The position numbers and the translations under genes are program-made. Shown here in pieces: positions 28,264 to 49,902 of a stretch of 64,000 bases of DNA (position 1 is the stretch's first letter; each line of letters opens with the position of its first letter). Under the pieces are notes generated by a model. The model saw only the letters and a program-made list of their open reading frames with translations. It did not search any database and was not told the origin of the DNA. Source of the DNA: Nitrospirota bacterium (GTDB taxonomy: Bacteria > Nitrospirota > UBA9217). The stretch lies in contig CAVUCU010000001.1 of assembly GCA_963740085.1 (NCBI GenBank), forward strand, positions 1,312,001-1,376,000. The letters are read 5' to 3'.

Positions 28264-31200
28264 TTGACAACATACAGCAAAACGGGATGTCTTTTACTTT
28301 TCGCCCTTGCTCTCACTGCATTTCAGACAGACGCGTATGGTGCGGGGGAAAAACCCGTGCAGCCCCTTCCGGTATACCGTCTCGTCGTTTCGTTCGACTT
28401 GAAAAGTCATCTCCTGAAAGGCACTGCATCCATTACGCTGCCGGAGGCCGGCGATACGATGGTTTCTGCCGGCAATCTCAGGATCACCTCGGTCACCTTG
28501 AACGGATCGCCTGCGGATTACAAGGTCAAAGAAGGCCTGTTCAAGATAGCCGGGAACGGAATACTCGAAATAAGGTACGAAGGGACCTTCGCGGGAGAGC
28601 CCGGCGACATGGTGAACCTTGAGAATGCAGGCGTGGTCTCAACCGGGGTGGTAAGCGCCGGCGGCATCTCGCTCACCGCTGACTGGTATCCTGCGATCAG
28701 CGGCCTTGCATTTTATAAGCTCATCGCTCTTGTTCCGGATAATTTCGTCGCCATATCGGAGGCGGATGAAATTACCGCAAGCAGGACCCCGTCGGGGAAA
28801 GAGTACTCCTTTGATTTTTCGCACCCCTTATCCGGGGTAGATCTTGTTGCAGGCGAATACCGGGAGGCCAGGGACACGGTTGACGGCATAGATCTTTATA
28901 CCTATTTCATTCCCGAGGATGTTTCCCTTGCTGCGGATTATATCGAACACATGAAAAAATATTTCAAAATGTACAATAAATTGCTCGTTCCGTACCCGTA
29001 CAAAAGGTTCTCCGTCGTGGAGAACATCCTGCCGACGGGCCTTTCCATGCCTACCTTCACCCTTCTGGGAAGGGACATCATCCGCCTCCCGTTCATTCCC
29101 GAGACCTCCCTGGGTCATGAAATTACCCATCAATGGTTCGGGAATTATGTGTTTGCCGACTTTAAAAAAGGCAACTGGCTGGAAGCGATCACCACTTATC
29201 TCTCCGATCATCTTTACGAGGAACAGAAGGGCAAAGGGTGGGAGTATCGAAAGAATATCCTCATTAATTTCCAGAGCTATGTCTCCCCTGAAAAGGACTT
29301 CCCCCTCCGGGATTTCGTGGAGAGGACCGATTTCTCCTCCATGGCGATCGGATACGGAAAAGGCGCCATGCTTTTCCACATGCTGGAGAATCTGCTCGGA
29401 AGGGACAAATTTTATAAATCCCTGCGGACGCTGATCGACGACAATAAATTTCGAAAGGCGTCGTGGGCCGAGGTGGAGAATTCTTTTGAGCGGGAATCGG
29501 GCCAGGACCTCGGATGGTTTTTCAGCCAGTGGCTCGACCGCAAAGGAGTTCCTTCATTCGAAGTGCGATACCCCGGAGCGCTGGTCCTAAACGGCAACCC
29601 GACCGCGTCATGCGAGCTTAAGCAGAAGGGAGCACTTTATCGAGTGGCGTTGCCTGCAAAAGTCGTTACGGAAAGAAGTGAAGTGAGGCAGACGCTGTTG
29701 CTGGAAAAAGAAAAACACTATTTCGACATCGCGGTAAAAGAAGAGCCTCGGGAGCTGATCTTTGATGATGGTTACGACATTATGAGGACGCTTGCACGCG
29801 ACGAATTTCCTCCCGTCATTGCGCGGCTGCTGGGAGATGAACAAAAGCTGATCGTTTACCCTGAAAAAGAAAAAGAGCGGTACGCCGGCTTGATGTCCAT
29901 TTTCAAAAGAGCGGGGTTTGTGGCCAAAGAACAGGGAGAGGTGAACGACAAGGACATCAAAGCCTCTTCGCTCCTCGTTTTGGGCTCTGAAAGCCCTGTC
30001 CTTAAACGGCTCTTTGGAGAAGCCGGGGTAAGGAAGCCGGGATTTCTCCTTATCGTAAGAAATAACCCCCTGAATACCGCAAAGGTCGTGGCCTATGCCC
30101 ACGGGGATTCGAAAGAAGAAGTCGATCTCGCCGCAGGAAAGATATTCCACTATGGAAAGTATTCGGTCCTGCGCTTTGAAAAAGGGAAGAACGTCGTAAA
30201 GGAAATTACCGAAAAAGACCGGGGCATGGTGTTCAATCTCCGTGATTCCGTAGAAGGGGTGGAACCCGCACGATCATTAAAGCTCGATAAAATAATAGAT
30301 GCTGTCAGCGACAAGCCCCTTATCCTCATCGGAGAACGTCACACCAACTATGAAGACCATAAGGTGGAGCTTGCGGTAATCATGGGTCTCTTTAAAAAGG
30401 GGAGAAAATTCGCGATCGGGATGGAAATGTTCCAGACGCCTTTCCAGACGGCGATCGACGGGTATCTCTCCGGAGCCCTGGATGAAAGGGAATTTCTAAA
30501 AAAGACGGAATATTTCAAGAGGTGGAAATTTGACTACATGTATTACCGCGAGATCATAGAGTTCGCCAAGGCGAAGGGTATTCCCCTTATCGCGCTCAAC
30601 CAGCGGACGGAAATTGTGGACAAAGTGGCCAGGGGAGGACTCGATGCCCTTTCCGCGGAGGAAAGGAAAGAGATACCCCAGGACATGGACATGTCCGATG
30701 AATCACATAAACAGCGCATGAAGGATGTATTCGAAGACCATCCTCCAGGAATTGCATTTGACAACTTTTACCAGTCACAGATACTCTGGGATGAGACCAT
30801 GGCGCACTCAGCAGCCCGATTCCTGGAGGAACATCCGGAAGTGCAGATGGTCGTGCTCGCCGGAGATGAACACATCATGTACGGTTCGGGGGTCCCCGAC
30901 CGGATTCACCGGCTTACCGGCAAAGACCCTGTTACGCTTATAAACGGCGTCTTCGACAAGGACGTCGGCACTTATGTGCTTTTTCCGGAACCCCTCAACC
31001 CTCCTTATACCGCAAAACTGGGGGTCATCGTCAAGGAAGCAGATGGTGTGGTTCACGTTGACGATTTTTCGACTGATAGCCCGGCATCACAGGCAGGGAT
31101 CAGAGAAGGCGACATTATCTCTTCCATAGACGGCGGGAAGATAGAAGCCTTAAGCGATATGAAGATAGCCCTGTTTGACAAGAAACCGGGCCAGACGATA

Positions 31201-31269
31201 AGCGTAAAAGTAGTAAGAAAAAACTTTTTTCTTGGCAAAAGAATACTTGAATTTTATCTAACCCTATAA
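28264..31269 (+). CDS. Exported M1-like metallopeptidase / ChaN-like / PDZ fusion protein
   Basis: Signal peptide; HEITHQWFGN..NWLE and YGKG; IGERH..H..AIGMEMF..Q..WDETMA; SPASQAGIREGDII. Confidence 0.8.
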   Translation: MTTYSKTGCLLLFALALTAFQTDAYGAGEKPVQPLPVYRLVVSFDLKSHLLKGTASITLPEAGDTMVSAGNLRITSVTLNGSPADYKVKEGLFKIAGNGILEIRYEGTFAGEPGDMVNLENAGVVSTGVVSAGGISLTADWYPAISGLAFYKLIALVPDNFVAISEADEITASRTPSGKEYSFDFSHPLSGVDLVAGEYREARDTVDGIDLYTYFIPEDVSLAADYIEHMKKYFKMYNKLLVPYPYKRFSVVENILPTGLSMPTFTLLGRDIIRLPFIPETSLGHEITHQWFGNYVFADFKKGNWLEAITTYLSDHLYEEQKGKGWEYRKNILINFQSYVSPEKDFPLRDFVERTDFSSMAIGYGKGAMLFHMLENLLGRDKFYKSLRTLIDDNKFRKASWAEVENSFERESGQDLGWFFSQWLDRKGVPSFEVRYPGALVLNGNPTASCELKQKGALYRVALPAKVVTERSEVRQTLLLEKEKHYFDIAVKEEPRELIFDDGYDIMRTLARDEFPPVIARLLGDEQKLIVYPEKEKERYAGLMSIFKRAGFVAKEQGEVNDKDIKASSLLVLGSESPVLKRLFGEAGVRKPGFLLIVRNNPLNTAKVVAYAHGDSKEEVDLAAGKIFHYGKYSVLRFEKGKNVVKEITEKDRGMVFNLRDSVEGVEPARSLKLDKIIDAVSDKPLILIGERHTNYEDHKVELAVIMGLFKKGRKFAIGMEMFQTPFQTAIDGYLSGALDEREFLKKTEYFKRWKFDYMYYREIIEFAKAKGIPLIALNQRTEIVDKVARGGLDALSAEERKEIPQDMDMSDESHKQRMKDVFEDHPPGIAFDNFYQSQILWDETMAHSAARFLEEHPEVQMVVLAGDEHIMYGSGVPDRIHRLTGKDPVTLINGVFDKDVGTYVLFPEPLNPPYTAKLGVIVKEADGVVHVDDFSTDSPASQAGIREGDIISSIDGGKIEALSDMKIALFDKKPGQTISVKVVRKNFFLGKRILEFYLTL

Positions 31270-36156: not shown

Positions 36157-36428
36157 CCGTGCGACATGCCGCACGGACCGCATGAAGCTTCACGCATCCG
36201 CTGTTGATCGATTTTTGTGGACAGGGTCAGAAAAAGAGAACGGTGAAGTATCAAATCCTGCGGCTTTTTGGTGCATTTCGCTCACCAAGGGCGTCGAGGA
36301 TCGGCCTGGCGTGCAAACGGTTGGATAGAGAGACAGGGCATCTCCGTACCCTGGCAGGTTGATGCTGTTACTCGGGTATAAATCACTTCGGACACCGGGA
36401 AAGGATATTGAACCCATGGGAGGCAAAT

Positions 36429-36662
36429 ATGATGCACTGGGGAGATTATGGATGTGGCGCGGGTTATGGATGGATTTGGATGGTGCTTTTCTGGGGACTG
36501 GTCATTGCCGGCCTCGTGTATCTCGTGCAGACAATAACCGGCCGCGCCGGAAAATCCAGTGCGGGAGAGACATCGCTTGATATTCTGAAAAAAAGATACG
36601 CGAGGGGAGAGATCTCCCATGAGGAATTTGACCGGATGAAGGACGAACTCATGAAATCCTGA
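36429..36662 (+). CDS. Small membrane protein with C-terminal SHOCT domain
   Basis: GYGWIWM + TM helix + LDILKKRYARGEISHEEF; GGGAGG RBS. Confidence 0.85.
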   Translation: MMHWGDYGCGAGYGWIWMVLFWGLVIAGLVYLVQTITGRAGKSSAGETSLDILKKRYARGEISHEEFDRMKDELMKS

Positions 36663-36672
36663 GGGGAAAGTT

Positions 36673-36975
36673 ATGAAGCTTATCATTGCCATCGTAAGAA
36701 CCACCAGTCTCGAACGCATCGTGCGGGCGCTCGAAGAGGTCGGCATTAAGAGCATGACGATCTCAGCGGTTAAGGGGTTGGGTGAGGAGGTCCGCCTGCA
36801 TAATCCCTATACGATACACGACAAGATCGAGATCATCCTGCCCGATGACAAGGTTGAAAAAGCGGTTGCTCTTCTTCTGGCAAACAGCCGTATCGGCATG
36901 CCCGGCGACGGTGTTATCGCTGTCCAGTCCCTTGACTATGTCGTGAAGACCCGGACAGAGGAACGGAAGGCGTGA
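36673..36975 (+). CDS. PII-family signal protein with a short T-loop
   Basis: MKLIIAIVR, MTISAVKGLG, KIEII, G.PGDG.I.V; only 100 aa. Confidence 0.85.
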   Translation: MKLIIAIVRTTSLERIVRALEEVGIKSMTISAVKGLGEEVRLHNPYTIHDKIEIILPDDKVEKAVALLLANSRIGMPGDGVIAVQSLDYVVKTRTEERKA

Positions 36976-37011: not shown

Positions 37012-37230
37012 ATGAAGGTCGCTCTGTTTAGCGTAAGCAATAATCTCTGCGCTGAGTGCTCGCTCGCATTGCGGCGGTTCGTCGGCGGCATGGACGGCGT
37101 GGAGTCCATTGACGTGGAGCACGGGAAGATCGCCGTCAAGTTCGATGAAGCCGCGATCGAAGAGGAAAAACTGACGAAGATCACTCGGGACAGCATAGAA
37201 AAATTGGGGTATCGACTTGAAGAAGAGTGA
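37012..37230 (+). CDS. HMA-domain (CopZ-like) metal chaperone
   Basis: CAEC near the N-terminus, GVESIDV, IEKLGY; AAGGAGG RBS. Confidence 0.8.
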   Translation: MKVALFSVSNNLCAECSLALRRFVGGMDGVESIDVEHGKIAVKFDEAAIEEEKLTKITRDSIEKLGYRLEEE

Positions 37231-37260: not shown

Positions 37261-38343
37261 ATGAAGAAGGATCCTGTCTGCAACATGGAGGTGGGCGAAG
37301 ACACCGGCATTACCACCGAGCGCAACGGCAAAACCGTCTTCTTCTGCTCGGAGGGATGCCGCGAGAAGTTCCTGAAGGAGCGCGAGTGCAAGGTGCCGCG
37401 TTCCTCTTATGACCTCATCATCGTCGGAGGCGGCCCCGCCGGACTTACTGCCGCGGTCTACGCAGCGACCATGAAGATGGATGCGTTCCTTATCGCCAAG
37501 GACCTGGGCGGCCAGGCCGTGGACAGCACCAAGATCGAGAACTACATGGGCTACGACTTCATCACCGGACCGCAGCTGATCGAGAAGTTCCAGGAGCAGC
37601 TCGTGCGGTCCCACTATATAGACCATGTGATCAGCGAGGTCGAGAAGATCGAGCCCATGGGCGTCTGTTTTCGTGTAACGACGTCGGAGCTGAAGCAGTA
37701 CGAAGCGAAGGCCGTGATCGTCACCACGGGTATGGCGAGGCGCACGCTGGGTGTGGAGGGCGAGGAGCGGTTCCAGAGGAAAGGGGTGTTTTACGGGAAT
37801 ATCCAGGACCTTTCCTTCGTCCATGACAAGGACGTCGTGGTGGTGGGCGGCGGGAATTCGGCGCTCCAGACGGTCGAGAACCTGCATGAACTCGCGAGGC
37901 GCATCCACCTCGTGTCCGCCACGGAGCTCACGGCGGACGCGGCGATCATCGAGCGCGTCCGACACCTTTCCGGCCTGAACGTTTACGAGGAGTACAAGGT
38001 CGTTGAGTTTGTCGGGCAAGCGGCACTCTCCGGCGTGACGATCAGGAAGATGGCGGGTGAGGAAACGCTCTCCCTGCCCGCCGAAGGCGTCTTCATCGCG
38101 ATCGGATTCAAGCCGAATTCCGGCCTCCTTGCGCACCTGGTGGACGTGAACGAGCGTGGCGAGATCATCATCCATCCCGATTGTTCGACCTCTTATCCGG
38201 GCATCTTTGCGGCCGGGGACATCACGAATGCCTTCGGCAAACGGATCATCATCGCCTCGGGCGAAGGAGCGAAGGCCGCACTTGCCGCGCGGCAGTACCT
38301 CCTTGACCTCCGGAAGAAGAAGGATGCGGCAGTCTGCACATGA
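37261..38343 (+). CDS. YHS domain fused to a thioredoxin-reductase-like flavoprotein lacking CxxC
   Basis: DPVCNM..FFCSEGC; GGGPAG, IENYMG, GGGNSA, FIAIG, FAAGD; GVFYGNIQD at the active-site position. Confidence 0.85.
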   Translation: MKKDPVCNMEVGEDTGITTERNGKTVFFCSEGCREKFLKERECKVPRSSYDLIIVGGGPAGLTAAVYAATMKMDAFLIAKDLGGQAVDSTKIENYMGYDFITGPQLIEKFQEQLVRSHYIDHVISEVEKIEPMGVCFRVTTSELKQYEAKAVIVTTGMARRTLGVEGEERFQRKGVFYGNIQDLSFVHDKDVVVVGGGNSALQTVENLHELARRIHLVSATELTADAAIIERVRHLSGLNVYEEYKVVEFVGQAALSGVTIRKMAGEETLSLPAEGVFIAIGFKPNSGLLAHLVDVNERGEIIIHPDCSTSYPGIFAAGDITNAFGKRIIIASGEGAKAALAARQYLLDLRKKKDAAVCT

Positions 38344-38915
38344 GCGTAGAGTTTCCGGCAGTGGGAGGCTGATGCGGGTCTCCGCTGACCTGTGCGGTCG
38401 GTTTCCTGGGACAAACAGTTCCTCTTGTACCGGAATTATACAGACTTAGACGTGAAAACCCCTGCTAAGAAGAAAGTACTACGCGTGTGATCTTCCTAGC
38501 GGATTGAAACCGAAGATCGGATAAAATGATGCATGTCTTCCTTCCCTTGTGAGAACATTCTGATATACTGGGATATATAAATAAAATTATTATAATCTGC
38601 TTTAGAGATTACGCAGGGAACTCAATCGAAAGATATTACCTTCTCTTTTGAACGCGGTGGTCGTAACGATCTCCTTTGCGTGTTGTCATGGACATCAGAC
38701 AGGGCAGACCGTGAAATAAAATTTCCCCATCGCGTGCACGGCGATAATCGGCGGGGGCCACGGTTATCCTGTTGAAAATCTAAATATTTTTTTCCCTCCA
38801 TTCAGAGGTGATTGAGACGGGCATGAACCGATCGCTCTCCGGCCAAGGCGTGACATGGTGGAAGCGTCGGGCAACCCTTGGCGGGGAAATCGGTCCCGCC
38901 CGCGAGGCAAAGATC

Positions 38916-39647
38916 ATGAATGAAAAGAGCCGTGTATTTGCGCTGTGCTGGGCAGTGGTGTTCGTTCTGTGCGGGACTGGCGTCCGTGCGGAACAGGGGC
39001 GTGGAGCATGCGTAACATGCCATACCTTTCTGGGCGGCGAACTTGGACGGCCCGTCGCGGAGTGGAGCGGTTCGATCCATCGGCAGAACGGAATTACCTG
39101 CGATCTCTGCCACGGCGGAAATGCAGGCGTTGAGGTGAGGAATGTACGGAATCTCACCGTGCAGGAGTTAGCGGACAAGAAATCGCGCGCGATGTCGAAA
39201 TCCCATGGCTTCATCGGTAAGCCTTCCGGCAAGGCGCTGTTTCACCTGTGCGCGCAGTGCCATGGCGACTCAACGGAGCGGTACGCCGGCAGCATCATGG
39301 GCAGGGCGTATCTTGACGGCAAAGGCGGACCCTCGTGCGTTACCTGTCATCAGGCACACAACAATATCATCCCTTCGGTTCCCAAGGTCTGTGAAAGCTG
39401 TCACAAGGACACGACCGGCTTCGACCGGATAGACCCTATGAACGTGACCGAATCGACTATCAACGAACTCTCAAGGATCCGGATCGGGCTTGCGGAGGAG
39501 AACGCCAGAGGAGTGAAGCCGCACCTGGTTTCCGAACTCCCGGAAGACCTGGATACCTTCCTGATAGGGCTTCTGGCATTCGGGGGGGTGTTCATCATGT
39601 TCCTCATCGGCTATATTGTGTACGTGACGCTGGAAAAAAGGAGATAA
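38916..39647 (+). CDS. Pentaheme cytochrome c with C-terminal membrane anchor
   Basis: Signal peptide; CVTCH, CDLCH, CAQCH, CVTCH, CESCH; hydrophobic C-terminus. Confidence 0.88.
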   Translation: MNEKSRVFALCWAVVFVLCGTGVRAEQGRGACVTCHTFLGGELGRPVAEWSGSIHRQNGITCDLCHGGNAGVEVRNVRNLTVQELADKKSRAMSKSHGFIGKPSGKALFHLCAQCHGDSTERYAGSIMGRAYLDGKGGPSCVTCHQAHNNIIPSVPKVCESCHKDTTGFDRIDPMNVTESTINELSRIRIGLAEENARGVKPHLVSELPEDLDTFLIGLLAFGGVFIMFLIGYIVYVTLEKRR

Positions 39648-39648
39648 C

Positions 39649-39912
39649 ATGGGCATCGAGGTCATTCAGGAAAAGAGGCCGACCTATTCTTCAGTCGCCA
39701 TGGGAGCGATCATCGTCCTCGGCGCCGCGATTCTCGGGATGGGAGCCGCCTTTGCCTATCTCTTGCTGTCGGGCAAGGGGAGCAATTATCTGCTGGGCAC
39801 GCTCCTGGCCTTCGAGTTTTTGTTCGCCGGCATCGAGGTCGTTCTCTATGCACGGTATTTCATCGCATTCAGAGAGGTTTCGGAAGACCGCGAGGAGGAG
39901 TTGTTATGGTAG
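39649..39912 (+). CDS. Small two-helix membrane protein in the Rieske/cytochrome b operon
   Basis: 87 aa, two hydrophobic segments, AAGGAG RBS, tightly coupled to both neighbours. Confidence 0.7.
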   Translation: MGIEVIQEKRPTYSSVAMGAIIVLGAAILGMGAAFAYLLLSGKGSNYLLGTLLAFEFLFAGIEVVLYARYFIAFREVSEDREEELLW

Positions 39913-40523
39913 ACGGGGTCGGCGGAGATACGGGTGAGAAAAAAGGGATTACCCGGAGACGGTTCACGCTCGCGGTGCTCATTGCGTCCGTTGCGGGCGC
40001 ATTCGGCTCTCTCTTTGCAATGCTCCGGGTGCTGGCCCCCGAAAAGAAGGGCGGAGGCTACGTAACGACGATTCAGCCGGGTGACAAACTCGTGTCTGCA
40101 AAAGGCGGCAACATGGGGTCTCTTTTGCGGGCCTCTTCATTCAACACCGGAGATGCCCTCCTTGCCTTTCCGGCCGGCAAATCATCGAACCCTGCAAATC
40201 TCGTCCAGGTGATCAAATTGCAGGAGGGTGACTTCAAGCCGCCCATACACCTTGATCTTACGGACCAGGGTTTTGTCGCTTACAGCGCCATCTGTACGCA
40301 CCTCGGATGCACGGTTTCCTGGGTTAAAAATGAAAAAGCGCCCGACGCGTCGTTCTCGGAATGTTTCTGTCATAACAGCATCTTCGATCCGGCGCAGGGG
40401 GCAAAAGTCATGGGCGGCCCAGCGCCTATCCCGCTCGCGCAGATCGGCGTCAAGGTGGCAGCCGACGGAACGCTCGTTTTCACCAGCGATTTTACCGGCC
40501 CGATAGGCCCGCAGGTAGGGTGA
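39906..40523 (+). CDS. Rieske [2Fe-2S] protein
   Basis: TRRRF Tat-like anchor; CTHLGC and CFCHNS boxes; GGPAP.PL. Confidence 0.93.
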   Translation: MVDGVGGDTGEKKGITRRRFTLAVLIASVAGAFGSLFAMLRVLAPEKKGGGYVTTIQPGDKLVSAKGGNMGSLLRASSFNTGDALLAFPAGKSSNPANLVQVIKLQEGDFKPPIHLDLTDQGFVAYSAICTHLGCTVSWVKNEKAPDASFSECFCHNSIFDPAQGAKVMGGPAPIPLAQIGVKVAADGTLVFTSDFTGPIGPQVG

Positions 40524-40529
40524 GGAGAG

Positions 40530-41795
40530 GTGAGTGACATGAGCATTTTTTCCTGGTTCGATGAAAGGCTGGATCTCAGGAAGTTCAAGGCGAAATTCCT
40601 GGTCAAGACGTTTCCAACCCATCCCACTTTTTTGCTCGGAGAACTGGCGCTGTTTTCCTTTGTCACGCTTGCGGCAACGGGCCTCTTTCTCGGCTTTCTC
40701 TACGAGCCCTCGACGAAAATGGTCTCGTTGTTCGGGGCCATGGTCCCGGCGGCTTATGCGAGCGTGGTAAAAATAGACATCCTGCCTTTCGGCATGATCA
40801 TGCGGCGTATTCATCACTGGTCGGCTATGCTCATGATCGCCGCCATTCTTGCGCACCTGATGAGGATTTACTTCACTTCGGCGTACCGGAAACCGCGGGA
40901 GATCAACTGGCTGATCGGGCTCGGGCTGCTGGGAACGGCGATGGTTGCCGCCTTTACCGGGTATTTATTGCCCTACAGTCAATTCTCGGTGACGGCCACC
41001 TCGATAGCCTATTACGTGTCGAAGTCGGTGCCGTGGGTCGGGGATTGGGCCGCAAGGCTCCTCTTTGCCGGCGAGTTCCCTTCGGACGGGACGGTCCCCC
41101 GCTTCTTCTTCATTCACGTTATGTTGATTCCGGCGGCGCTTATCGGACTCATCGGCCTTCACCTGCTCATCATCATAAAACAGAAGCATACGGAACCCCG
41201 GTCCAACAGGAACCGGAAAGAAGCACAGGGAGGCCGGAGGCTGATCGGAATTCCGGTCTGGCCGGAGCAGGGCGTGATCAGCCTGTCCTTTTACCTGTTC
41301 TTGCTTTTCGTGGTCGTTTTGATGGCGACCTACATCCCCCTGAACCCGATAGAAACGTACGGTCCACCGTCACCCGGAACTCCCGTTATGCGGCCTGACT
41401 GGTACTTTCTTCCTGTATACGGTTTTTTAAAATTGATACCCGGTGACCTGTCCTTCACTGTTCTGGGAGGAAATATTACACCCGAAACCATCGGCGGGGT
41501 CGTGTTCCCGGGATTGCTGTTCCTTGTTCTTGCATTGATCCCATTTCTCGACAGGGCAAGAGAGCCGCAGAATTATATCGAAAATCCGCTTCACCGGCCC
41601 TTTATGACGTCCCTCGGCGTCGGGGGCGGCGTTTTCCTCGGTATGACGGCCGCGGCAGGCTACATAGACGTGCTCCATATTACGCCAGGGAGAATGACGA
41701 TCTATGCGATCTTCGCGGCGTTGGCGGCGTGGAGCATCAGTTACGCGCTGCTGCGGCGATATAGCAGAAGGAGAATCGACCATGCCAAGACTTGA
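40530..41795 (+). CDS. Cytochrome b of a Rieske/cytochrome b complex (unsplit)
   Basis: RRIHHW..AHL, KPREINW.G, FTGYLLP, FFIHV..GLH, PDWYF; start 40530 (GTG) or 40539 (ATG). Confidence 0.93.
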   Translation: MSDMSIFSWFDERLDLRKFKAKFLVKTFPTHPTFLLGELALFSFVTLAATGLFLGFLYEPSTKMVSLFGAMVPAAYASVVKIDILPFGMIMRRIHHWSAMLMIAAILAHLMRIYFTSAYRKPREINWLIGLGLLGTAMVAAFTGYLLPYSQFSVTATSIAYYVSKSVPWVGDWAARLLFAGEFPSDGTVPRFFFIHVMLIPAALIGLIGLHLLIIIKQKHTEPRSNRNRKEAQGGRRLIGIPVWPEQGVISLSFYLFLLFVVVLMATYIPLNPIETYGPPSPGTPVMRPDWYFLPVYGFLKLIPGDLSFTVLGGNITPETIGGVVFPGLLFLVLALIPFLDRAREPQNYIENPLHRPFMTSLGVGGGVFLGMTAAAGYIDVLHITPGRMTIYAIFAALAAWSISYALLRRYSRRRIDHAKT

Positions 41796-42537
41796 TCATA
41801 TGCTTGTTTGCGCGCTTATATCGTTCAGCGTGCTCATTTTCTCCGCATCGGCGAATGCCGCCGATGCCGGCAAAACGGATAATACCTGCGTCGCTTGCCA
41901 TTCCGGGCTTCCGGGCAGCAGCTTTGTAGGCGTAAAATCCCACAGCTGGAGGGGATCAATTCATCAGAAACGCGGAGTGACGTGTGACAAATGCCACGGA
42001 GGAAATCCACGCGCCCCGGAGCAGAAAGCGGCCCATCAAGGTGTCCTCGGCTCCAGCGATTCCCAAAGCACGGTTTACTTCAAGAATATTCCGGCCACCT
42101 GCGGCAAATGTCACGGCGCCGAGTTTTATAAGTTCGGCCAGAGCCTGCACTACAAGATGCTGGAATCGACGGGAAAGGGCCCCGATTGTGTGACCTGCCA
42201 CGGTTCGATGGTCAACAGTATTTTAACACCGGACACAATCGCGGCTTTGTGCGAGCAGTGCCACAACGAGAGGATGGGCATCTTCCCGTACATCCCGCAG
42301 AAGGCGAAGGCGGTGCTTCTTTTACTGAGGGAGAGCACGGCCCTTCTCGACGCGGACGCGAAGCGTTATCGCCCTGCAGATGGAACTGCGAAGGCGCGCC
42401 ACCTGCGCGACGCCCGGACATCTCTACACTCCGCCCGAACGGATTGGCACAAGTTCGACCTTGATACGGTCACAGGACACTTGCAGAAAATGTATAATTC
42501 CCTGGAAAAGTTGTCCCCGGAAAAATCGCGCCAATAG
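41782..42537 (+). CDS. Exported pentaheme cytochrome c
   Basis: Signal peptide; CVACH, CDKCH, CGKCH, CVTCH, CEQCH. Confidence 0.88.
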   Translation: MPRLDHMLVCALISFSVLIFSASANAADAGKTDNTCVACHSGLPGSSFVGVKSHSWRGSIHQKRGVTCDKCHGGNPRAPEQKAAHQGVLGSSDSQSTVYFKNIPATCGKCHGAEFYKFGQSLHYKMLESTGKGPDCVTCHGSMVNSILTPDTIAALCEQCHNERMGIFPYIPQKAKAVLLLLRESTALLDADAKRYRPADGTAKARHLRDARTSLHSARTDWHKFDLDTVTGHLQKMYNSLEKLSPEKSRQ

Positions 42538-42851
42538 CGCGTGCAGGGCATGTAAAAAGAGATTTGGACCGTTCCCTTCAACCAAAGAGGCATGCTTCAC
42601 ATTCACTGTCTGGCTGACGCCGCCGGCATCGTGATGGCGGCAGTGAACTTCTCCTCTTGAGCTTTCGTCCCTTCATGAACAGGGTTTGGAATATAAGTAC
42701 CCTGAACGTGAAGCCTGCCGAAATTCCATGTTCGAGCCTGACAGTGCGTGGATGGCGTACTTCATGAAAGACGTAGTCGCCGTGGTACAGAAAGGCGCTC
42801 ATTTTTTCGTATGAGCGGTGCGTGATGCTTCTCCGGCATCGGGAGGAATTG

Positions 42852-45323
42852 ATGAACGTCAAAGACCCGGTTTGCGGAATGACCATAGGAGAAGAGGATG
42901 CGGCGGGTACATCCACTTACCAGGGGAAGACATACTACTTCTGCTCGACCTCGTGCAAGGAAAAGTTCGATCAGGACCCTGAAGTCTATGCAAAAGAAGA
43001 GGCGTTGGAAGGAAAACAACAGGCTGCAGGAACCTGCCCGACGTGCAGCAGGCCGCTGATCCCTGACGAACCGCATACGCATTCCGCCAAACCCGAGTGG
43101 ACCTGTCCCATGCACCCGGAGGTCCGTCAGCCCGGTTCCGGCGCCTGCCCCAAGTGCGGCATGGCGCTCGAACCCGTTGAACCTGCCCCTGCGTCAACAG
43201 CATCATCGAAAATCGAATGGACCTGCCCCATGCACCCGGAGATCGTGCGCGACAAAGCGGGGGCCTGCCCTAAATGCGGCATGGCGCTGGAGCAGAAGAC
43301 GGTTTCTCTTGACGAGGAGGAGAACCCGGAGCTGATCGACATGATCCGGAAGTTCAAGGTCGGCGTCGTTCTTACGATCCCGCTGGTCTATATCGCCATG
43401 GGGAGCATGGTCCCGGCCATCTCTCCGGACAAGTTCATACCCGTGGGGTGGCTGAAGTGGCTGGAACTGGTCCTGGCGACCCCCGTGGTCCTCTGGGGCG
43501 GCTGGTCGTTCTTTGTGCGCGGATGGCGGTCCATCGTTACCTGGAACCCCAACATGTTCACGCTCATCGGACTGGGCACGGGCGTCGCATACTCATACAG
43601 CGTTGTGGCGGCGCTGTTCCCCGGGATCTTTCCCGCGTCCTTTCGCGGCAAAGGCGGTGCAGTAGGGACCTACTTCGAGGCATCGGCGTCGATTACGACC
43701 CTGGTACTGATGGGCCAGGTACTCGAACTCCGCGCGCGCAGCAAGACGGGTACGGCCATCAAGGCCCTGCTCGGCCTTGCGCCCAAGACCGCGCGGCGCG
43801 TGAAAGACGGGACCGAGGAGGACGTACCGCTTGAACAGGTCCAGGCAGGCGATCAGCTGCGCGTGCGGCCCGGTGAAAAGGTGCCGGTAGACGGCGTGGT
43901 CATCGAAGGAACAAGCGCCATCGACGAATCCATGGTCACGGGCGAACCTATCCCGGTGGAAAAAAATGCCGGCGACCGCGTTGTCGGCGCTACCGTGAAC
44001 GGTACAGGCTCGTTTGTCATGAAGGCAGAGAAGGTCGGTTCCGAGACGCTGCTTGCGCAGATCGTTCATATGGTGGCTCAGGCCCAGCGCAGCCGGGCGC
44101 CCATCCAGAAGCTCGCGGATATCATTGCGGGTTATTTTGTGCAGATCGTGGTCTCGATCGCAGTCCTTACGTTCCTGGTGTGGGCCTGGGTCGGGCCCGA
44201 GCCCCGCTTCGTCTATGGGCTCGTGAATGCGGTTGCGGTGCTGATCATCGCCTGTCCGTGCGCCCTGGGGCTCGCGACGCCCGTGTCCATTATGGTGGCC
44301 ATGGGCAAAGGCGCCAATGGAGGCGTGCTGTTCAAGAACGCCGAGGCCATCGAGCTGATGCGGAAAGTGGACACGCTCGTGGTCGACAAGACCGGAACGC
44401 TCACCGAAGGCAAGCCGAAATTGACTGAAGTGGCGTCGAATGACGGATACGACGAGAAATCGATACTTTTGTACGCTTCGAGCATCGAGCAGGGCAGCGA
44501 GCATCCCCTTGCGGCGGCTATCGTAGAAGGCGCGAAGGGAAAAGGCGTAACCCCGAAAAAGGCAGAGGACTTCAAGTCCAGGACCGGTAAAGGCGTTACC
44601 GGGAAAGTGGACGGTCATGATGTCGCGCTCGGCAACCAGGCCCTTCTCGATGAGCTGAACATAGACCCCGGTGGATTATCCGGAAAGGCCGAGGAACTGA
44701 GAAAGGACGGACAGACCGTCATGTTCGTTGCCGTGGACGGAAAGGCTGCCGGGCTCCTGGGGGTGGCCGATCCGATCAAGGGAACTACGGCCGAAGCGAT
44801 CAAACAGCTTCACGAGGAAGGCGTCAGGATCGTTATGATCACGGGCGACAACAAGACCACGGCTGAGGCGGTCTCGAAAAAACTGGGGCTCGACGAGGTG
44901 ATCGCGGGCGTGCTGCCAGACCAGAAGGTCGAAGCGGTGAAGCGCCTGCAGGGCGAAGGACGCTTCGTTGCCATGGCCGGCGACGGCATCAACGACGCCC
45001 CTGCCCTTGCCCAGGCCCAGGTGGGCATTGCCATGGGCACGGGTACGGACGTGGCAATGAAGAGCGCGGGCGTGACGCTCGTAAAGGGCGACCTTCGCGG
45101 TATCCTGCGCGCACGGCTCCTCTCCCGGGCCACGATGAAGAACATCAAGCAGAACCTGTTCTTTGCCTTTGTCTACAATGCCATCGGCATTCCCGTTGCC
45201 GCCGGCGTGCTGTACCCGTTCTTCGGCATCCTGCTCAGTCCCATTTTTGCCGCGGCGGCGATGAGTTTCAGCTCGGTATCGGTGATCGGAAACGCCTTGA
45301 GACTTCGAAGGGCAAAAATCTGA
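42852..45323 (+). CDS. copA: Cu(I)/Ag(I)-translocating P1B-type ATPase
   Basis: YHS domain + two CPMHP..CPKCGM domains; TGE, CPC, DKTGT, HP, GDGIND, YN and MSFSS. Confidence 0.95.
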
Positions 45324-45943: not shown

Positions 45944-48499
45944 ATGAACCGCAAGGTCGTCAACACACTTGGCTCGTTTGCCGGATTGCTCCTTTTCCTC
46001 ATCGCCCTCTGGGTCCTGCACCATGTGCTTTCGGGGTATCACTACAGGGACCTCGCTGCGGGAGCACGCGCCGTTCCCGCACGACGTTTGTTTTTCGCAC
46101 TGCTGCTCACGGCCCTGAATTATTTCGTCCTGACCGGCTATGACTCCCTTGCGTTCCGTTACATCCACCGCACCCTCGCGTACAGCAAGATCGCCTTCGC
46201 GTCGTTCATCGGCTATGCCTTCAGCAACAATATCGGTTTGTCCATGCTTGCGGGCAGCTCGGTCCGCTACCGGTTGTACACGTCCTGGGGCCTCTCGGTA
46301 CTGGAGATCACGAAAATGGTGGCCTTTTACACCGCGACGCTCTGGCTCGGGCTCTTTTTCACGGGAGGTCTCGCCTTCGTGGCTGAACCGATCGCATTGC
46401 CGTCCCTGATGGATCTGCCCTTTACCTCGGCACGCCCGTTGGGTATTGTCTTCCTCATCATAGTGTTTGGATACATCGGCTTGAGCGCGATCCGCAGAAA
46501 GCCGTTCACGATCCTGAATCGCGAGATCGAACTCCCTTCGGCGCTCCTTTCCGTGACGCAGATCGCACTATCGTCCCTTGACTGGTTGCTTGCCGGATCA
46601 GTCCTCTATGTCCTCCTGCCGGAAGTTTCCGTGCTTACATTTCCGGGCTTTATCGGTATTTATCTTCTTGCCCAAGTAGCCGGTCTGGTGAGCCAGGTAC
46701 CCGGCGGACTGGGGGTGTTCGAGATAATCGTTCTCCTGCTTCTGCCTCCCGGGGTCCCGGCCCCCCGGGCAGTGGGAGCGCTTCTCCTCTATCGGGGCAT
46801 CTACTACCTGCTTCCGCTCATCATTGCGGCGGTGATGATGGGGATGTATGAGCTGGCTGCCGCGAGGTCGCCGGTCAAGGGTCTGGTCAGGTTCATGGGC
46901 CAGGAGATATCGGCCATTGCTCCCCGGGTGCTGTCGATCATCATTTTCGTGGGTGGCGCGTTGCTCTTGTTTTCGGGAGCGACGCCCGAGTTTCCTTCAC
47001 GGCTGGAGTGGCTTACGGACATCCTCCCCTTGCCTTTTCTGGAGGTATCACACTTTCTCGGCAGTCTTGCCGGCGTGGCTCTGCTGCTCCTGGCGCGCGG
47101 CATCCAGCGCAGGCTGGACGCAGCATATAATCTCACGCTTGTCCTGCTCGGAGCAGGCATCCTGTTCTCCCTGGTCAAGGGATTCGATTACGAAGAGGCC
47201 TTTATCCTGGCCATCATGCTCGGCGCGCTTCTCCCGAGCAGGAGGTTCTTTTATCGCCGCGCGTCGCTCCTGAGCCAGGGCTTTTCCGCGGGATGGATCA
47301 TGTCCATCGTGGCAGTCCTCGCCGGCTCTGTCTGGCTGGGGTTTTTCTCCTATCGTCACCTCGAATACTCCCAAAGATTATGGTGGCAATTCACCCTTGA
47401 TGGCGATGCGCCGCGGTTCCTGCGTGCCACGGTCGGGGTGATGACGCTCACCGTGATCCTGGGCGCGGTGCGGCTCCTCCGGCCGGCGCTGCGGGAACCG
47501 CCGACGATCGGCAGCGACGATAGAAAGCAAGTCCGTTCCATTGTCTCGGCCAGCACGGACACGACGGCGAACCTGGCGCTGTTGGGGGATAAAAGGTTTC
47601 TGTTCAGTGAAAGCGGGAAATCATTCATTATGTATGACATCGAGGGAAGGAGCTGGGTCGCCATGGGGGACCCGGTAGGACCCGAGGAAGAACGAAAGGA
47701 TCTGGGCTGGCGCTTCCGGGAGATGTGCGACCGCGATGGCGGATGGCCGGTCTTTTACGAAGTCGGGAAGGAAAACCTCTATCTGTATATCGATCTTGGA
47801 CTTACGCCCCTCAAGCTCGGCGAAGAGGCGAGAGTGCCACTCATGAATTTCTCCCTTGAAGGCAAGGGCCGGAAAGATCTGCGCTATGCGCATATGCGCG
47901 CTGCGCGCGAAGGTGCGGTGTTTTCGGTCGTGCCCGCGGCCGGCGTTCCGCCGCTCCTGCCCGAGCTCAGGAAGATTTCCGAGGCCTGGCTTGCGGCAAA
48001 GAACACGCGAGAGAAGCGGTTCTCCCTGGGGTATTTCAATGAGATCTATCTGCGGGAGTTCCCCGTGGCCGTTGTCAGGAGAGATGGTCACATCATAGCG
48101 TTTTCCAATATCTGGCAGGGAGCGGCCCGGGAAGAGCTCTCCATCGACCTCATGCGTCACGTCCCCGGCACGCCGGGCGGGCTCATGGAATTCCTCTTTG
48201 TAGAGCTGATGCTTTGGGGAAAAGAGCAAGGTTATCGCCGCTTCAACCTCGGCATAGCGCCGCTCGCGGGCCTCGAGGACCGGGCCCTTGCTCCTCTCTG
48301 GAACCGCCTGGGAGCCCAGCTCTTTCGTCACGGAGAGCATTTCTACAACTTCAAAGGACTGCGGCAGTTCAAGGAGCATTTCGACCCGGAGTGGGAGCCG
48401 AAATATCTCGTCTTTCCCCGGGGCTTTCTCCTGCCGCGCATTCTGGCGAACCTCGCCTCTCTTATATCCGGAGGTTTTACCGGGGTAATCAAAAAATGA
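45944..48499 (+). CDS. mprF: Bifunctional aminoacyl-phosphatidylglycerol synthase/flippase
   Basis: GSSVRYRLY, PGGLGVFE, MGDPVG, KLGEEA, SIDLMR, FYNFKGLRQFK..F.P.WEPKYL. Confidence 0.94.
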   Translation: MNRKVVNTLGSFAGLLLFLIALWVLHHVLSGYHYRDLAAGARAVPARRLFFALLLTALNYFVLTGYDSLAFRYIHRTLAYSKIAFASFIGYAFSNNIGLSMLAGSSVRYRLYTSWGLSVLEITKMVAFYTATLWLGLFFTGGLAFVAEPIALPSLMDLPFTSARPLGIVFLIIVFGYIGLSAIRRKPFTILNREIELPSALLSVTQIALSSLDWLLAGSVLYVLLPEVSVLTFPGFIGIYLLAQVAGLVSQVPGGLGVFEIIVLLLLPPGVPAPRAVGALLLYRGIYYLLPLIIAAVMMGMYELAAARSPVKGLVRFMGQEISAIAPRVLSIIIFVGGALLLFSGATPEFPSRLEWLTDILPLPFLEVSHFLGSLAGVALLLLARGIQRRLDAAYNLTLVLLGAGILFSLVKGFDYEEAFILAIMLGALLPSRRFFYRRASLLSQGFSAGWIMSIVAVLAGSVWLGFFSYRHLEYSQRLWWQFTLDGDAPRFLRATVGVMTLTVILGAVRLLRPALREPPTIGSDDRKQVRSIVSASTDTTANLALLGDKRFLFSESGKSFIMYDIEGRSWVAMGDPVGPEEERKDLGWRFREMCDRDGGWPVFYEVGKENLYLYIDLGLTPLKLGEEARVPLMNFSLEGKGRKDLRYAHMRAAREGAVFSVVPAAGVPPLLPELRKISEAWLAAKNTREKRFSLGYFNEIYLREFPVAVVRRDGHIIAFSNIWQGAAREELSIDLMRHVPGTPGGLMEFLFVELMLWGKEQGYRRFNLGIAPLAGLEDRALAPLWNRLGAQLFRHGEHFYNFKGLRQFKEHFDPEWEPKYLVFPRGFLLPRILANLASLISGGFTGVIKK

Positions 48500-49902
48500 G
48501 ACGATCGTCCCCCCATTTCATCGTGATCGCGGCCCTTCTCCTGCTCTTCTGCAACGGCGTCTCCGCCGGCGAGGAGTCCTTTGCTTTCGGCCCGTTCGGG
48601 AGGGTCTTCCTTTACGGCTGGCAGACGAAACCATCGACGGTTGTGCTCCTTATTTCCGGTGACGGTGGATGGAACAAGGGTGTCGTCGACATGGCGCGTG
48701 AGCTCAGCAGTCTGGGTTCGGTCGTCGTGGGCGTGGATATCACGCGCTATCTCAAAAGCCTTTCATCGTCGAGCGGAACGTGCTCGTACCCGGCGGCTGA
48801 TTTTGAGACGTTGAGCAAATACGTGCAGAAGAAGCTGAATTACCCGTACTATACGCTTCCCATTCTCGTTGGCTATTCGTCCGGGGCCGCGCTGGTCTAT
48901 GCCGTGCTGGCGCAAGCGCCTCCGAACACCTTCCGGGGCGGCATCAGCATGGGGTTCTGTCCCGAGCTGAAACTTCGCAAGCCGCTCTGCAGGGGACAGG
49001 GACTCGACGCAAAACCGGGGATTCCCGGAAAGGGAGCGTTATTCCTGCCGGACAGAAAACTTGAGACACCCTGGATCGTCTTGCAGGGAGCGATCGATGA
49101 AGTCTGCGGCGCGGACGGAGCGAGGTCCTTCGTACGCATGATACCCGAAGCTGACATCGTTACTTTGCCGAAGGTTGGACACGGGTTTTCTGTAAAGAGA
49201 AACTGGATGCCTGAATTTAAAAATACCTTTGAACGGTTGAAGAACGACAAAGAGGTCGCGAACACAATGAACACTTCCCTGAACGACCTGCCGATCGTCG
49301 AGGTCCCTGCACAGGAAGGATCTTCCGACTTCTTCGCGGTCATCATCTCCGGCGATGGAGGATGGGCGGGGCTGGACCGGGAGGTTGGGGACGCGCTTGC
49401 CCAGCACGGCGTCCCGGTGGTAGGATTGAACTCCCTCCGGTATTTCTGGACCAAACGCACCCCTGAAGGCGCTTCGGAAGACCTCGCCCGGATACTCCGG
49501 CATTATCAACATGCATGGAACAGGAATACTGTTGTACTTGTCGGCTATTCCCTGGGCGCGGACGTACTTCCCTTCATGGCAAATCGCCTGCCTGCCGGCC
49601 TGCTCGACCACGTGCGCGAGATCGTCCTCCTCGGTCCGGGCAGAAAAACAGAATTCGAATTTCATCTTTCGGACTGGCTGTCCGGCATGGAAGATGCTTC
49701 GGCAAAACCTCTTTTGCCTGAACTCGAAAAGCTGCGTGGGAAAAGAATGCTCTGTCTGTATGGTGCCGGGGAGAAGGACAGCCTCTGTCCCGAGTTGGGA
49801 CATGATCTGGCCGAATCGATGCGTATGCCCGGTGGACACCATTTCGGCGGGCAATACGAATCAATTGCAGGGATGATTCTTAAGAGAATTGAGGGCAAAT
49901 AA
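48496..49902 (+). CDS. acvB: AcvB/VirJ family aminoacyl-PG hydrolase
   Basis: Two SGDGGW motifs, GYSSGA, GYSLGAD, GGHHF; overlaps the mprF stop. Confidence 0.9.
   Translation: MRRSSPHFIVIAALLLLFCNGVSAGEESFAFGPFGRVFLYGWQTKPSTVVLLISGDGGWNKGVVDMARELSSLGSVVVGVDITRYLKSLSSSSGTCSYPAADFETLSKYVQKKLNYPYYTLPILVGYSSGAALVYAVLAQAPPNTFRGGISMGFCPELKLRKPLCRGQGLDAKPGIPGKGALFLPDRKLETPWIVLQGAIDEVCGADGARSFVRMIPEADIVTLPKVGHGFSVKRNWMPEFKNTFERLKNDKEVANTMNTSLNDLPIVEVPAQEGSSDFFAVIISGDGGWAGLDREVGDALAQHGVPVVGLNSLRYFWTKRTPEGASEDLARILRHYQHAWNRNTVVLVGYSLGADVLPFMANRLPAGLLDHVREIVLLGPGRKTEFEFHLSDWLSGMEDASAKPLLPELEKLRGKRMLCLYGAGEKDSLCPELGHDLAESMRMPGGHHFGGQYESIAGMILKRIEGK

Follow-up and report, generated by a model that had tools for sequence, protein, structure and literature searches.

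The DNA analysed here, referred to as the window, is a 64,000-nucleotide (nt) stretch of a Nitrospirota bacterium genome (contig CAVUCU010000001.1, positions 1,312,001 to 1,376,000), and all coordinates below count from its first base. The open reading frame (ORF) at 37261..38343 (+), which begins with ATG, encodes a flavoprotein of 360 residues (aa) that is assigned, from the ORF, Pfam, NCBIfam, Foldseek and VIA-align, as a YHS-fused AhpF/TrxR-fold protein lacking the CxxC redox motif. Pfam places a YHS domain at residues 3-41 (37267..37383 (+); PF04945, 38.1 bits against a gathering score of 30.3) and Pyr_redox_2 at residues 50-327 (119 bits), with a linker of ~6 residues between the YHS domain and the AhpF/TrxR-fold part. 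The N-terminal part belongs to YHS/TRASH both by profile score and by its Asp and three Cys (D-P-V-C ... F-C-x-x-x-C; Asp4, Cys7, Cys29 and Cys33). Cys43 sits in the short linker after the domain; further cysteines are Cys135, Cys308 and Cys359. The NCBIfam profile for thioredoxin-disulfide reductase (TrxB, TIGR01292; TRX_reduct) ranks first with 254.9 bits, below its cut-off of 343.45, and that for AhpF (TIGR03140) second with 237.1 bits, below its cut-off of 502.9. No curated NCBIfam model covers the fusion, and the YHS part alone draws only a weak L24e match (E 0.023).

The motifs for flavin adenine dinucleotide (FAD) and for nicotinamide adenine dinucleotide or its phosphate (NAD(P)H) can be read from the translation: FAD-binding GGGPAG at residues 56-61 (37426..37443 (+)), VTTG at 154-157, NAD(P)H-binding GGGNSA at 196-201 (37846..37863 (+)) and FAD-binding FAAGD at 316-320 (38206..38220 (+)). 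Residues 175-183 read GVFYGNIQD. In a phmmer comparison with solved chains, where the best matches were M. tuberculosis TrxR (171.5 bits) and Salmonella AhpF (162.3 bits), G179-N-I-Q182 falls exactly over C-x-x-C (S. pyogenes TrxR 'gvsycavcd'), so that G179-N-I-Q-D183 (37795..37809 (+)) occupies the CxxC-D position of TrxR/AhpF. The H-R-R of the TrxR 2'-phosphate site is replaced by H-L-V-S-A-T (residues 216-221; 37906..37923 (+)), with 'lvs.ateltad' lying over TrxR 'vvhrrdqlraq' and AhpF 'llefapemkad', and HLVSAT over AhpF L-L-E-F-A-P. Because of this alignment the NAD(P)H site looks nearer to that of AhpF than to that of TrxR, yet it lacks AhpF's Glu. A preliminary description, made from the DNA letters, had reported the change from GVSYCxxCD to GVFYGNIQD, the loss of HRR to HLVSAT, intact FAD motifs and GGGNSA, and an N-terminal YHS domain supplying Cys7, Cys29 and Cys33 (plus Cys43); each of these readings held up against translation, alignment or Pfam. 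The residues show a flavoprotein whose cofactor sites are intact and which is incapable of dithiol-disulfide chemistry.

Conservation was assessed in the 120 closest clusters from a word-indexed database search (67-100% identity, aligned with MAFFT). These clusters span ~350-375 residues, almost all with precomputed YHS and Pyr_redox_2 assignments. DPxC occurs within the first 40 residues of 110/120, with DQVC or DIVC in two more; of the remaining rows, seven begin at an internal Met9, apparently through a start-calling error, and one is truncated. CxxC is missing from the active-site position throughout the 120, and GNIQD is kept there instead (G179 in 120/120, N180 in 118, I181 in 115, Q182 in 118 and D183 in 118). 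The cofactor motifs are equally stable: G56, G57, G58, P59 and G61 are found in 120/120 and A60 in 112/120, GGGNSA in 119-120/120 per position, and FAAGD in 118-120/120. Within HLVSAT, S219 is kept in 119/120, and position 220 varies (A 48, D 39, T 14, V 12). Among YHS residues, D4 and C7 are present in 112/120 (the eight rows without C7 have gaps there, attributed to miscalled starts) and C29 and C33 in 119/120. Since the same motif set is conserved throughout the family, the pattern is, by this alignment, far beyond chance. The preliminary description would have been refuted by close homologues that keep CxxC, making the window protein a degenerate allele, and that reading is not upheld: because CxxC occurs in 0/120 of the closest clusters and in none of eight deeper YHS-fused representatives, and GNIQD is kept, the alignments support the loss as a fixed family trait and not a decayed allele.

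Source databases name family members 'alkyl hydroperoxide reductase subunit F', 'NADH-dependent peroxiredoxin subunit F', 'FAD-dependent oxidoreductase' or 'thioredoxin reductase', and a protein atlas, in which the window's own sequence is absent, places one homologue (P0107) just within generic 'thioredoxin-disulfide reductase family' clusters of Nitrospirota. Judged by their residues, members lack both redox dithiols, so the AhpF and thioredoxin reductase annotations cannot hold. A full-text literature search, with subscription journals outside its coverage, returned no paper on a YHS + TrxR/AhpF-type fusion. The family is widespread and uncharacterised; its fold and its added module are each known already, but their pairing is new, is conserved and hints at a function.

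Deeper relatives came from an exhaustive search of 50%-identity representatives. Those fused to YHS (P0121, P0122, P0123, P0124, P0126, P0130 and the fragment P0125) are 43-66% identical to the window protein, and the YHS of P0130 was confirmed by Pfam; past them the score falls from ~305-340 to ~230 bits, and the other representatives match only residues 46-350. All eight YHS-fused representatives (P0121-P0126, P0130 and the query) lack CxxC, with the active-site variants GN-VQD, SA-VQD, RL-VHE, SV-VQD and YH-DLL, and 106 rows without YHS keep it. The nearest CxxC-bearing relatives, without YHS, are 38-43% identical; several CxxC relatives have an N-terminal glutaredoxin (P0141, P0143, P0144, P0154, P0167, P0185, P0231 and P0242), and P0148 instead has a 242-residue N-terminal extension of a length that matches AhpF. 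In a FastTree phylogeny of 133 core domains, from which fragments with cores <270 or >340 residues had been dropped, a single group (SH-like support 94) unites the seven YHS rows with a fragment cut at its N-terminus; it is nested in a 33-row group (support 93) together with AhpF-long and several glutaredoxin-fused CxxC forms. The tree places the family's probable origin in the AhpF / glutaredoxin-TrxR branch of the low-Mr thioredoxin-reductase fold. Because of this nesting, our reading is that the N-terminal acceptor-domain slot was refilled once by YHS, and that the relay dithiol disappeared. Elsewhere in the tree, away from the YHS clade, is a separate group without CxxC. The genome itself has three other TrxR-like paralogues, 33-36% identical to the flavoprotein. 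Two database TrxR homologues (P0264 and P0238) have a large insertion, apparently an intein, within CxxC (GVSYCA...[about 400 aa]...NCD).

An AlphaFold2 (AF2) model of the flavoprotein, built from a 52-row alignment, has a mean predicted local distance difference test score (pLDDT) of 85 and a predicted template modelling score (pTM) of 0.69, with pLDDT ~80 in the YHS domain and ~65 in the linker. Foldseek and VIA-align gave AhpF and TrxR as its best matches, VIA-align reaching Z 34 and a root-mean-square deviation (rmsd) of 2.2 A over 302 residues with 7p9d. The model is nearer to the flavin-reducing (FR) than to the flavin-oxidising (FO) conformers: it differs from L. lactis FR by 4.2 A against 5.4 A for FO, and from E. 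coli by 4.1 A for the TrxR-Trx complex against 5.6-5.7 A for FO. Superposition of model residues 8-353 on E. coli AhpF 183-521 (VIA) gave an rmsd of 7.8 A, too loose for YHS placement.

The cysteine complement of the YHS region varies within the family. The preliminary listing of Cys7, Cys29, Cys33 and Cys43 was right for the window, yet the family usually adds a fifth Cys at position 21 (97/120 closest clusters), where the window has Arg: codon 21 (37321..37323 (+)) is CGC here and TGC in most of the family, a C/T difference at 37321. A database protein (P0001) has Cys21 and is identical to the window protein at the other 359 positions; the window's assembly also reads CGC, and contigs from four public soil-metagenome runs of one study have T in one and C in three, at depth <5. 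The Arg21 and Cys21 alleles thus both appear to occur naturally, with no assembly slip. Cys43 is kept in 111/120 and missing in 9/120. The deepest-branching members (P0124 and P0126) have only the ordinary three-Cys YHS, and because of these and of Arg21 in the window, Cys21 and Cys43 are later, dispensable additions. In the fetched loci the flavoprotein YHS has an extra Cys in 38/48 (Cys21 region) and 34/48 (Cys43 region), compared with 0/32 YHS domains of neighbouring ATPases, kinases, HD-GYP proteins, phosphorylases and small proteins; by this comparison the flavoprotein's YHS domain is specialised, and its extra Cys are family-specific. Cys359 (38335-38337; the protein ends A-A-V-C-T) is poorly conserved, with Cys there in 47/120; as a single C-terminal Cys it recalls the C-terminal metal-handling Cys of MerA. 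Cys308 was considered as a single catalytic Cys and rejected, since it goes back to AhpF-like ancestors and is lacking in P0121 and P0124.

The flavoprotein gene is the last of four closely spaced genes, separated by 10, 36 and 30 nt, and the run stands upstream of CopA. First comes a small SHOCT-domain membrane protein (84 aa, 36408..36662 (+); Pfam SHOCT 41.5 bits), followed by a P-II-like protein (100 aa, 36673..36975 (+); Pfam P-II 55.5 bits) and an HMA-like protein (72 aa, 37012..37230 (+)) with the motifs C13-A-E-C16 and L-A-L-R-R-F. The latter scores 23.5 bits with Pfam HMA, just below the cut-off of 24.8, and 33 bits with the copper-ion-binding TIGR00003; in seven sequences C13, C16, R22, F23 and M27 are invariant. 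A complex prediction for the HMA protein with the flavoprotein and FAD gave no answer (score 0.02) and weighs neither way. The downstream Pfam-assigned CopA-type Cu(I) P1B-ATPase (42822..45323 (+)) has a CPC motif and an N-terminal YHS with two HMBD; its YHS, also claimed in the preliminary description, is confirmed at 59.8 bits beside the two HMBD repeats. This CopA N-terminus, with one YHS and two CPMH-type HMBD and no classical HMA, has a layout shared by many neighbouring CopA genes in related loci. The genome encodes just two YHS domains, in the flavoprotein and in CopA.

Other genes of the window were also inspected. Between the flavoprotein and CopA, 38808-42537 holds a multihaem-cytochrome/Rieske/cytochrome b cluster, comprising a multihaem cytochrome c (279 aa), a membrane protein (87 aa), a Rieske protein, a cytochrome b (421 aa) and a second multihaem cytochrome (277 aa). 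By tblastn this cluster was found, among related loci, only in L058, and because it is placed after CopA there, it lies outside the conserved copper module. Just downstream of CopA (45944-49902) are an MprF-like lysyl-phosphatidylglycerol synthase (851 aa) and then a VirJ-family hydrolase (562 aa), and 28264-31269 encodes a 1001-aa protein with Peptidase_M1, ChaN/Tiki haem-binding and PDZ domains. An Rfam scan of the whole window at gathering thresholds gave 0 matches; promoter/terminator and inverted-repeat scans around the operon gave none above shuffled expectation and no convincing operator. NCBIfam gave no match to 13 unnamed neighbour ORFs, many of which are probably spurious antisense ORFs.

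To place this arrangement in context, one genome per species was scanned, giving 61 loci: 33 in Nitrospirota and the others in Thermodesulfobacteriota or 'Deltaproteobacteria', Spirochaetota, Stahlbacteria/WOR-3, Bipolaricaulota or unclassified. Neighbourhoods were counted for the 56 loci in which the flavoprotein ORF was called; fetched flanks were <=6 kb on each side, and many ATPase-negative loci end at contig ends. A P1B-ATPase lies within 6 kb of the flavoprotein gene in 35/56 loci. Only three CopA-like genes occur in the 3.46 Mb of the window's genome, so chance proximity would be ~1%. The ATPase is adjacent and on the same strand in nine loci, with gaps of -11 to 220 nt, and six of these nine are CPH (CopB-type); the other neighbouring ATPases are largely CopA-type, with the CPC/YN/MxxSS signature in seventeen complete neighbours. 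The flavoprotein-adjacent ATPase in L021, L024, L034, L043, L044 and L045 is usually a short (~690-720 aa) CPH-motif CopB-type protein, the subtype whose specificity for Cu(II) or Cu(I) has been debated. In the window our longest-ORF caller preferred antisense ORFs over SHOCT, P-II and HMA, so its counts of small genes are underestimates; recounted by tblastn, related loci have the SHOCT gene in 18, the P-II-like gene in seven and the HMA gene in seven. The HMA gene is immediately upstream of the flavoprotein in the window and in L007, L008, L009 and L058. Recurrent neighbours further include DUF4396, DUF5676, an ICMT/PEMT-like methyltransferase, CsoR, DUF302, YtkA/FixH-like and Fer4_5. In several phyla, the family's genes are thus linked to those of Cu(I) export, and the recurrence of Cu P1B-ATPase or chaperone genes beside it over lineages places it, in operational terms, among the components of copper-homeostasis gene clusters.

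Two further groups of proteins recur in these loci. A 373-aa geranylgeranyl-reductase-family flavoprotein (NAD_binding_8) stands beside the YHS-flavoprotein in six loci, including L010, L018, L050 and L059, and co-occurs with DUF5676, the ICMT/PEMT-like methyltransferase, SHOCT and CopA. Further N-terminal YHS fusions are found as YHS-HisKA-HATPase_c, YHS-HD_5 (HD-GYP-type) and YHS-phosphorylase (glycogen-phosphorylase-like); examples of YHS fusions are L011:8129-8998, L012:3367-4203, L057:2368-3237, L022:10483-11430 and L026:1734-3653, among others. This recurrence suggests that these lineages use one copper-type module, YHS, for input or targeting in general.

Comparison with known systems sets the family apart from each of its relatives. 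With the AhpF C-terminal module and TrxB it shares the two-Rossmann fold (Z 34), 31-36% identity and the FAD/NAD(P)H glycine motifs, and it has AhpF-like details: 'ADxx', Cys308 in 'DCSTS' (AhpF 'KCETS') and 'IIIASGEGAKA'. By its FAD GxGxxG and NAD(P)H GxGxxA motifs it belongs, like TrxB, to the low-Mr TrxR fold; unlike TrxB it lacks CxxC (G-N-I-Q) and HRRxxxR (H-L-V-S-A-T-E-L-T-A) and falls below the TIGR01292 cut-off. Where AhpF has an N-terminal double thioredoxin-fold with CxxC, it has a 48-residue YHS, and the CxxC of the NADH domain is absent as well. The uncharacterised glutaredoxin-TrxR-like fusions (P0141, P0144, P0154 and others) fall in the same tree group and place their added small domain at the same N-terminal site, but keep CxxC, and what they have added is a redox partner with a dithiol instead of a module for binding metal. 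YumC-type ferredoxin-NADP+ reductases (FNRs; 3lzw, 8c16, 2zbw) likewise have a TrxR fold without CxxC, yet match more weakly (94-106 bits versus 160-171 bits for TrxR/AhpF); the loss of CxxC in the YHS clade is independent of theirs, and the family falls outside the FNR clade.

Among metal-handling enzymes, MerA is alike in outline, with an N-terminal soft-metal-binding domain tethered to a metal-reducing NAD(P)H flavoprotein, but belongs to another branch of the superfamily: our flavoprotein scores 57.6 bits against the TIGR02053 cut-off of 454.45. In MerA the N-terminal domain is HMA, a CxxxxC lies beside the flavin and the C-terminus bears a pair of Cys, whereas our flavoprotein has YHS, no Cys at the FAD-domain active-site position and a single Cys359 (47/120). 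The ferric reductases 'FeS' of Thermus scotoductus and 'Trx' of Thermoanaerobacter indiensis, compared by description only, have a TrxR fold without the disulfide and pass electrons from NAD(P)H through FAD to a metal ion; they differ in that neither YHS nor another metal-binding domain is reported for them, they have no copper-gene context, and their substrate is an Fe(III) chelate (PMC4142287). CcoG and the N-terminal domain of A. fulgidus CopZ share the proposed role, providing Cu(I) for a co-encoded P1B-ATPase or chaperone, and have a Cys-rich metal-handling domain; they differ in using Fe-S clusters and unknown donors, and CcoG is membrane-bound (PMC7558416). Our flavoprotein is soluble, has its own NAD(P)H site and has no sequence relation to either. 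The M. phlei adenylyl cyclase has a YHS with Asp and three Cys on a very short linker to its catalytic domain and is copper-responsive (PMC4626032). Its YHS is C-terminal on a non-redox enzyme, that of our flavoprotein N-terminal on a redox enzyme and usually with two more Cys.

The reading that we favour, at a probability of roughly 40%, is that the flavoprotein is an NAD(P)H-driven cupric (soft-metal) reductase in which the flavin acts directly on the metal, feeding the HMA protein and CopA/CopB. We infer that YHS binds metal, that electrons pass directly from flavin to metal, that copper is the substrate, and that it is handed to HMA/CopA. NAD(P)H would reduce FAD, and because the NADPH-specific HRR is absent the donor would probably be NADH or either nucleotide. 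Without a dithiol relay, reduced flavin would give its electrons straight to a metal captured or presented by YHS, most likely Cu(II), yielding Cu(I) that could move to the co-encoded HMA chaperone, on to a CopA/CopB-type ATPase and out of the cell. In the AhpF / glutaredoxin-TrxR branch the N-terminal slot holds the protein's own electron acceptor (the AhpF double thioredoxin fold or glutaredoxin); here it holds YHS. Published precedents favour direct reduction of a metal by flavin: TrxR-like ferric reductases without CXXC exist, and in Thermus scotoductus the absence is reported as advantageous for Fe(III) reduction (PMC4142287); tellurite is reduced by AhpF, TrxB and MerA (PMC4960239). According to a review, Cu(II) must be reduced ahead of handling by chaperones and P1B-ATPases, P1B-3/CopB is now classed with the Cu(I) pumps, CcoG, in an operon with the Cu-ATPase CcoI, is the only specific bacterial cupric reductase, and the Cys-rich Fe-S domain of A. 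fulgidus CopZ reduces Cu(II), the electron donor being given as unknown in both cases (PMC7558416). In a stronger form, which we hold to be possible and somewhat speculative, the family would be the first soluble enzyme dedicated to NAD(P)H-dependent copper reduction. Like MerA, it would trap the metal (copper, or else silver or gold) on its tethered YHS and reduce it directly at the flavin, making Cu(I) for CopA/CopB; more boldly, thiolate-bound Cu(I) would be taken down to inert Cu(0).

The preliminary description had inferred a metal-ion or metallochaperone reductase in which a metal site replaces the disulfide. Its metal-ion part gains support from the gene neighbourhood, which links the family to copper (P1B-ATPase in 35/56 loci, the HMA gene upstream), and from the conserved cofactor motifs. 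Its picture of the site gains no such support, as YHS lies at the FAD-domain N-terminus and not at the former CxxC position. Since the flavoprotein has no relay dithiol, a metallochaperone reductase that relies on thiol-disulfide exchange is unlikely, and re-reduction of oxidised HMA or YHS Cys by disulfide exchange is rejected.

Several points weigh against a cupric reductase. The family is known from sequence and gene context alone. Most of its carriers are anaerobes that live under reducing conditions, in which copper is already Cu(I). A Cys3 site favours Cu(I), and bound Cu(II) would tend to be reduced by the thiolates. YHS is attached to the FAD domain at the latter's N-terminal strand, and the model has a pTM of just 0.69 and a linker pLDDT of ~65. 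The extra Cys are inessential to family function. YHS is also fused to non-redox enzymes in these loci, which fits a sensor no less than a substrate-binding role. Cytosolic reductants, too, are stated to reduce Cu(II) unaided (PMC7558416).

That sensor, which the preliminary description had left aside, is the main rival, which we regard as a tentative alternative: a copper-switched flavoenzyme, part of a copper-stress response, in which YHS senses Cu(I)/Cu(II) and turns the enzyme on or off allosterically, the substrate being, e.g., a quinone, O2, a low-molecular-weight oxidant or a protein. In the M. phlei adenylyl cyclase a YHS on an 8-residue linker makes the enzyme copper-activated (PMC4626032), and the flavoprotein linker is equally short (~6 residues); the same module sits on the non-redox outputs HisKA/HATPase, HD_5 and glycogen-phosphorylase-like in related loci, and deep members have the ordinary 3-Cys YHS. 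A sensor leaves unexplained, however, why CxxC is lost in every YHS-fused member and retained in non-fused sisters, and why the extra Cys are absent from 32 sensor/ATPase YHS domains, and the neighbourhood offers no evident candidate substrate.

Two other explanations seem weaker. YHS might be a built-in one-electron carrier, its four to five Cys holding Fe (rubredoxin-like), an Fe-S cluster or structural Zn, so that a fused reductase-plus-carrier, comparable to an NADH:rubredoxin or ferredoxin reductase joined to its partner, would feed single electrons to an external acceptor, possibly copper on the HMA protein or CopA. We consider this unlikely: deep-branching members have three Cys only, Cys21 is polymorphic or absent and Cys43 missing in 9/120, the domain scores as an ordinary YHS (Pfam), and to our knowledge the Cys spacing fits no known Fe-S motif. 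It would nonetheless accord with the solved CxxC-less TrxR-fold enzymes that have iron-sulfur partners (ferredoxin-NADP reductases 3lzw, 8c16 and 2zbw), with the four Cys that the window allele keeps in the domain region (C7, C29, C33 and C43), and with the TRASH fold being a treble-clef related to L24e (the weak match, E 0.023), which binds metal via Cys (PMC4626032); the A. fulgidus CopZ Cys-rich Fe-S domain, moreover, reduces Cu(II) (PMC7558416). Loss of the canonical active-site dithiol and scores under the curated TrxB and AhpF cut-offs could also describe a catalytically dead AhpF-like relic, kept by chance beside copper genes. That is highly improbable, and effectively refuted by motif conservation: GNIQD is conserved in 115-120/120 and the FAD/NAD(P)H motifs in 112-120/120 at 67-100% identity, and the clade persists to 43% identity over several phyla.

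Copper-exporting P1B-ATPases and chaperones handle only Cu(I). According to a review, bacteria were long presumed to have no specific cupric reductases (PMC7558416). The flavoprotein, with its own NAD(P)H site, its copper-type domain and its position beside copA/copB, would be a directly testable candidate for the Cu(II) reduction step in mostly uncultured anaerobe lineages. In the stronger form of the reductase reading, bacterial copper reduction would gain the specifically coupled electron donor that it has lacked so far. If it is instead switched by copper, it would be the first copper-switched redox enzyme. Taken with the YHS-kinase, YHS-HD-GYP and YHS-phosphorylase fusions of the same loci, it would then indicate a wide regulon that senses copper through a single module.

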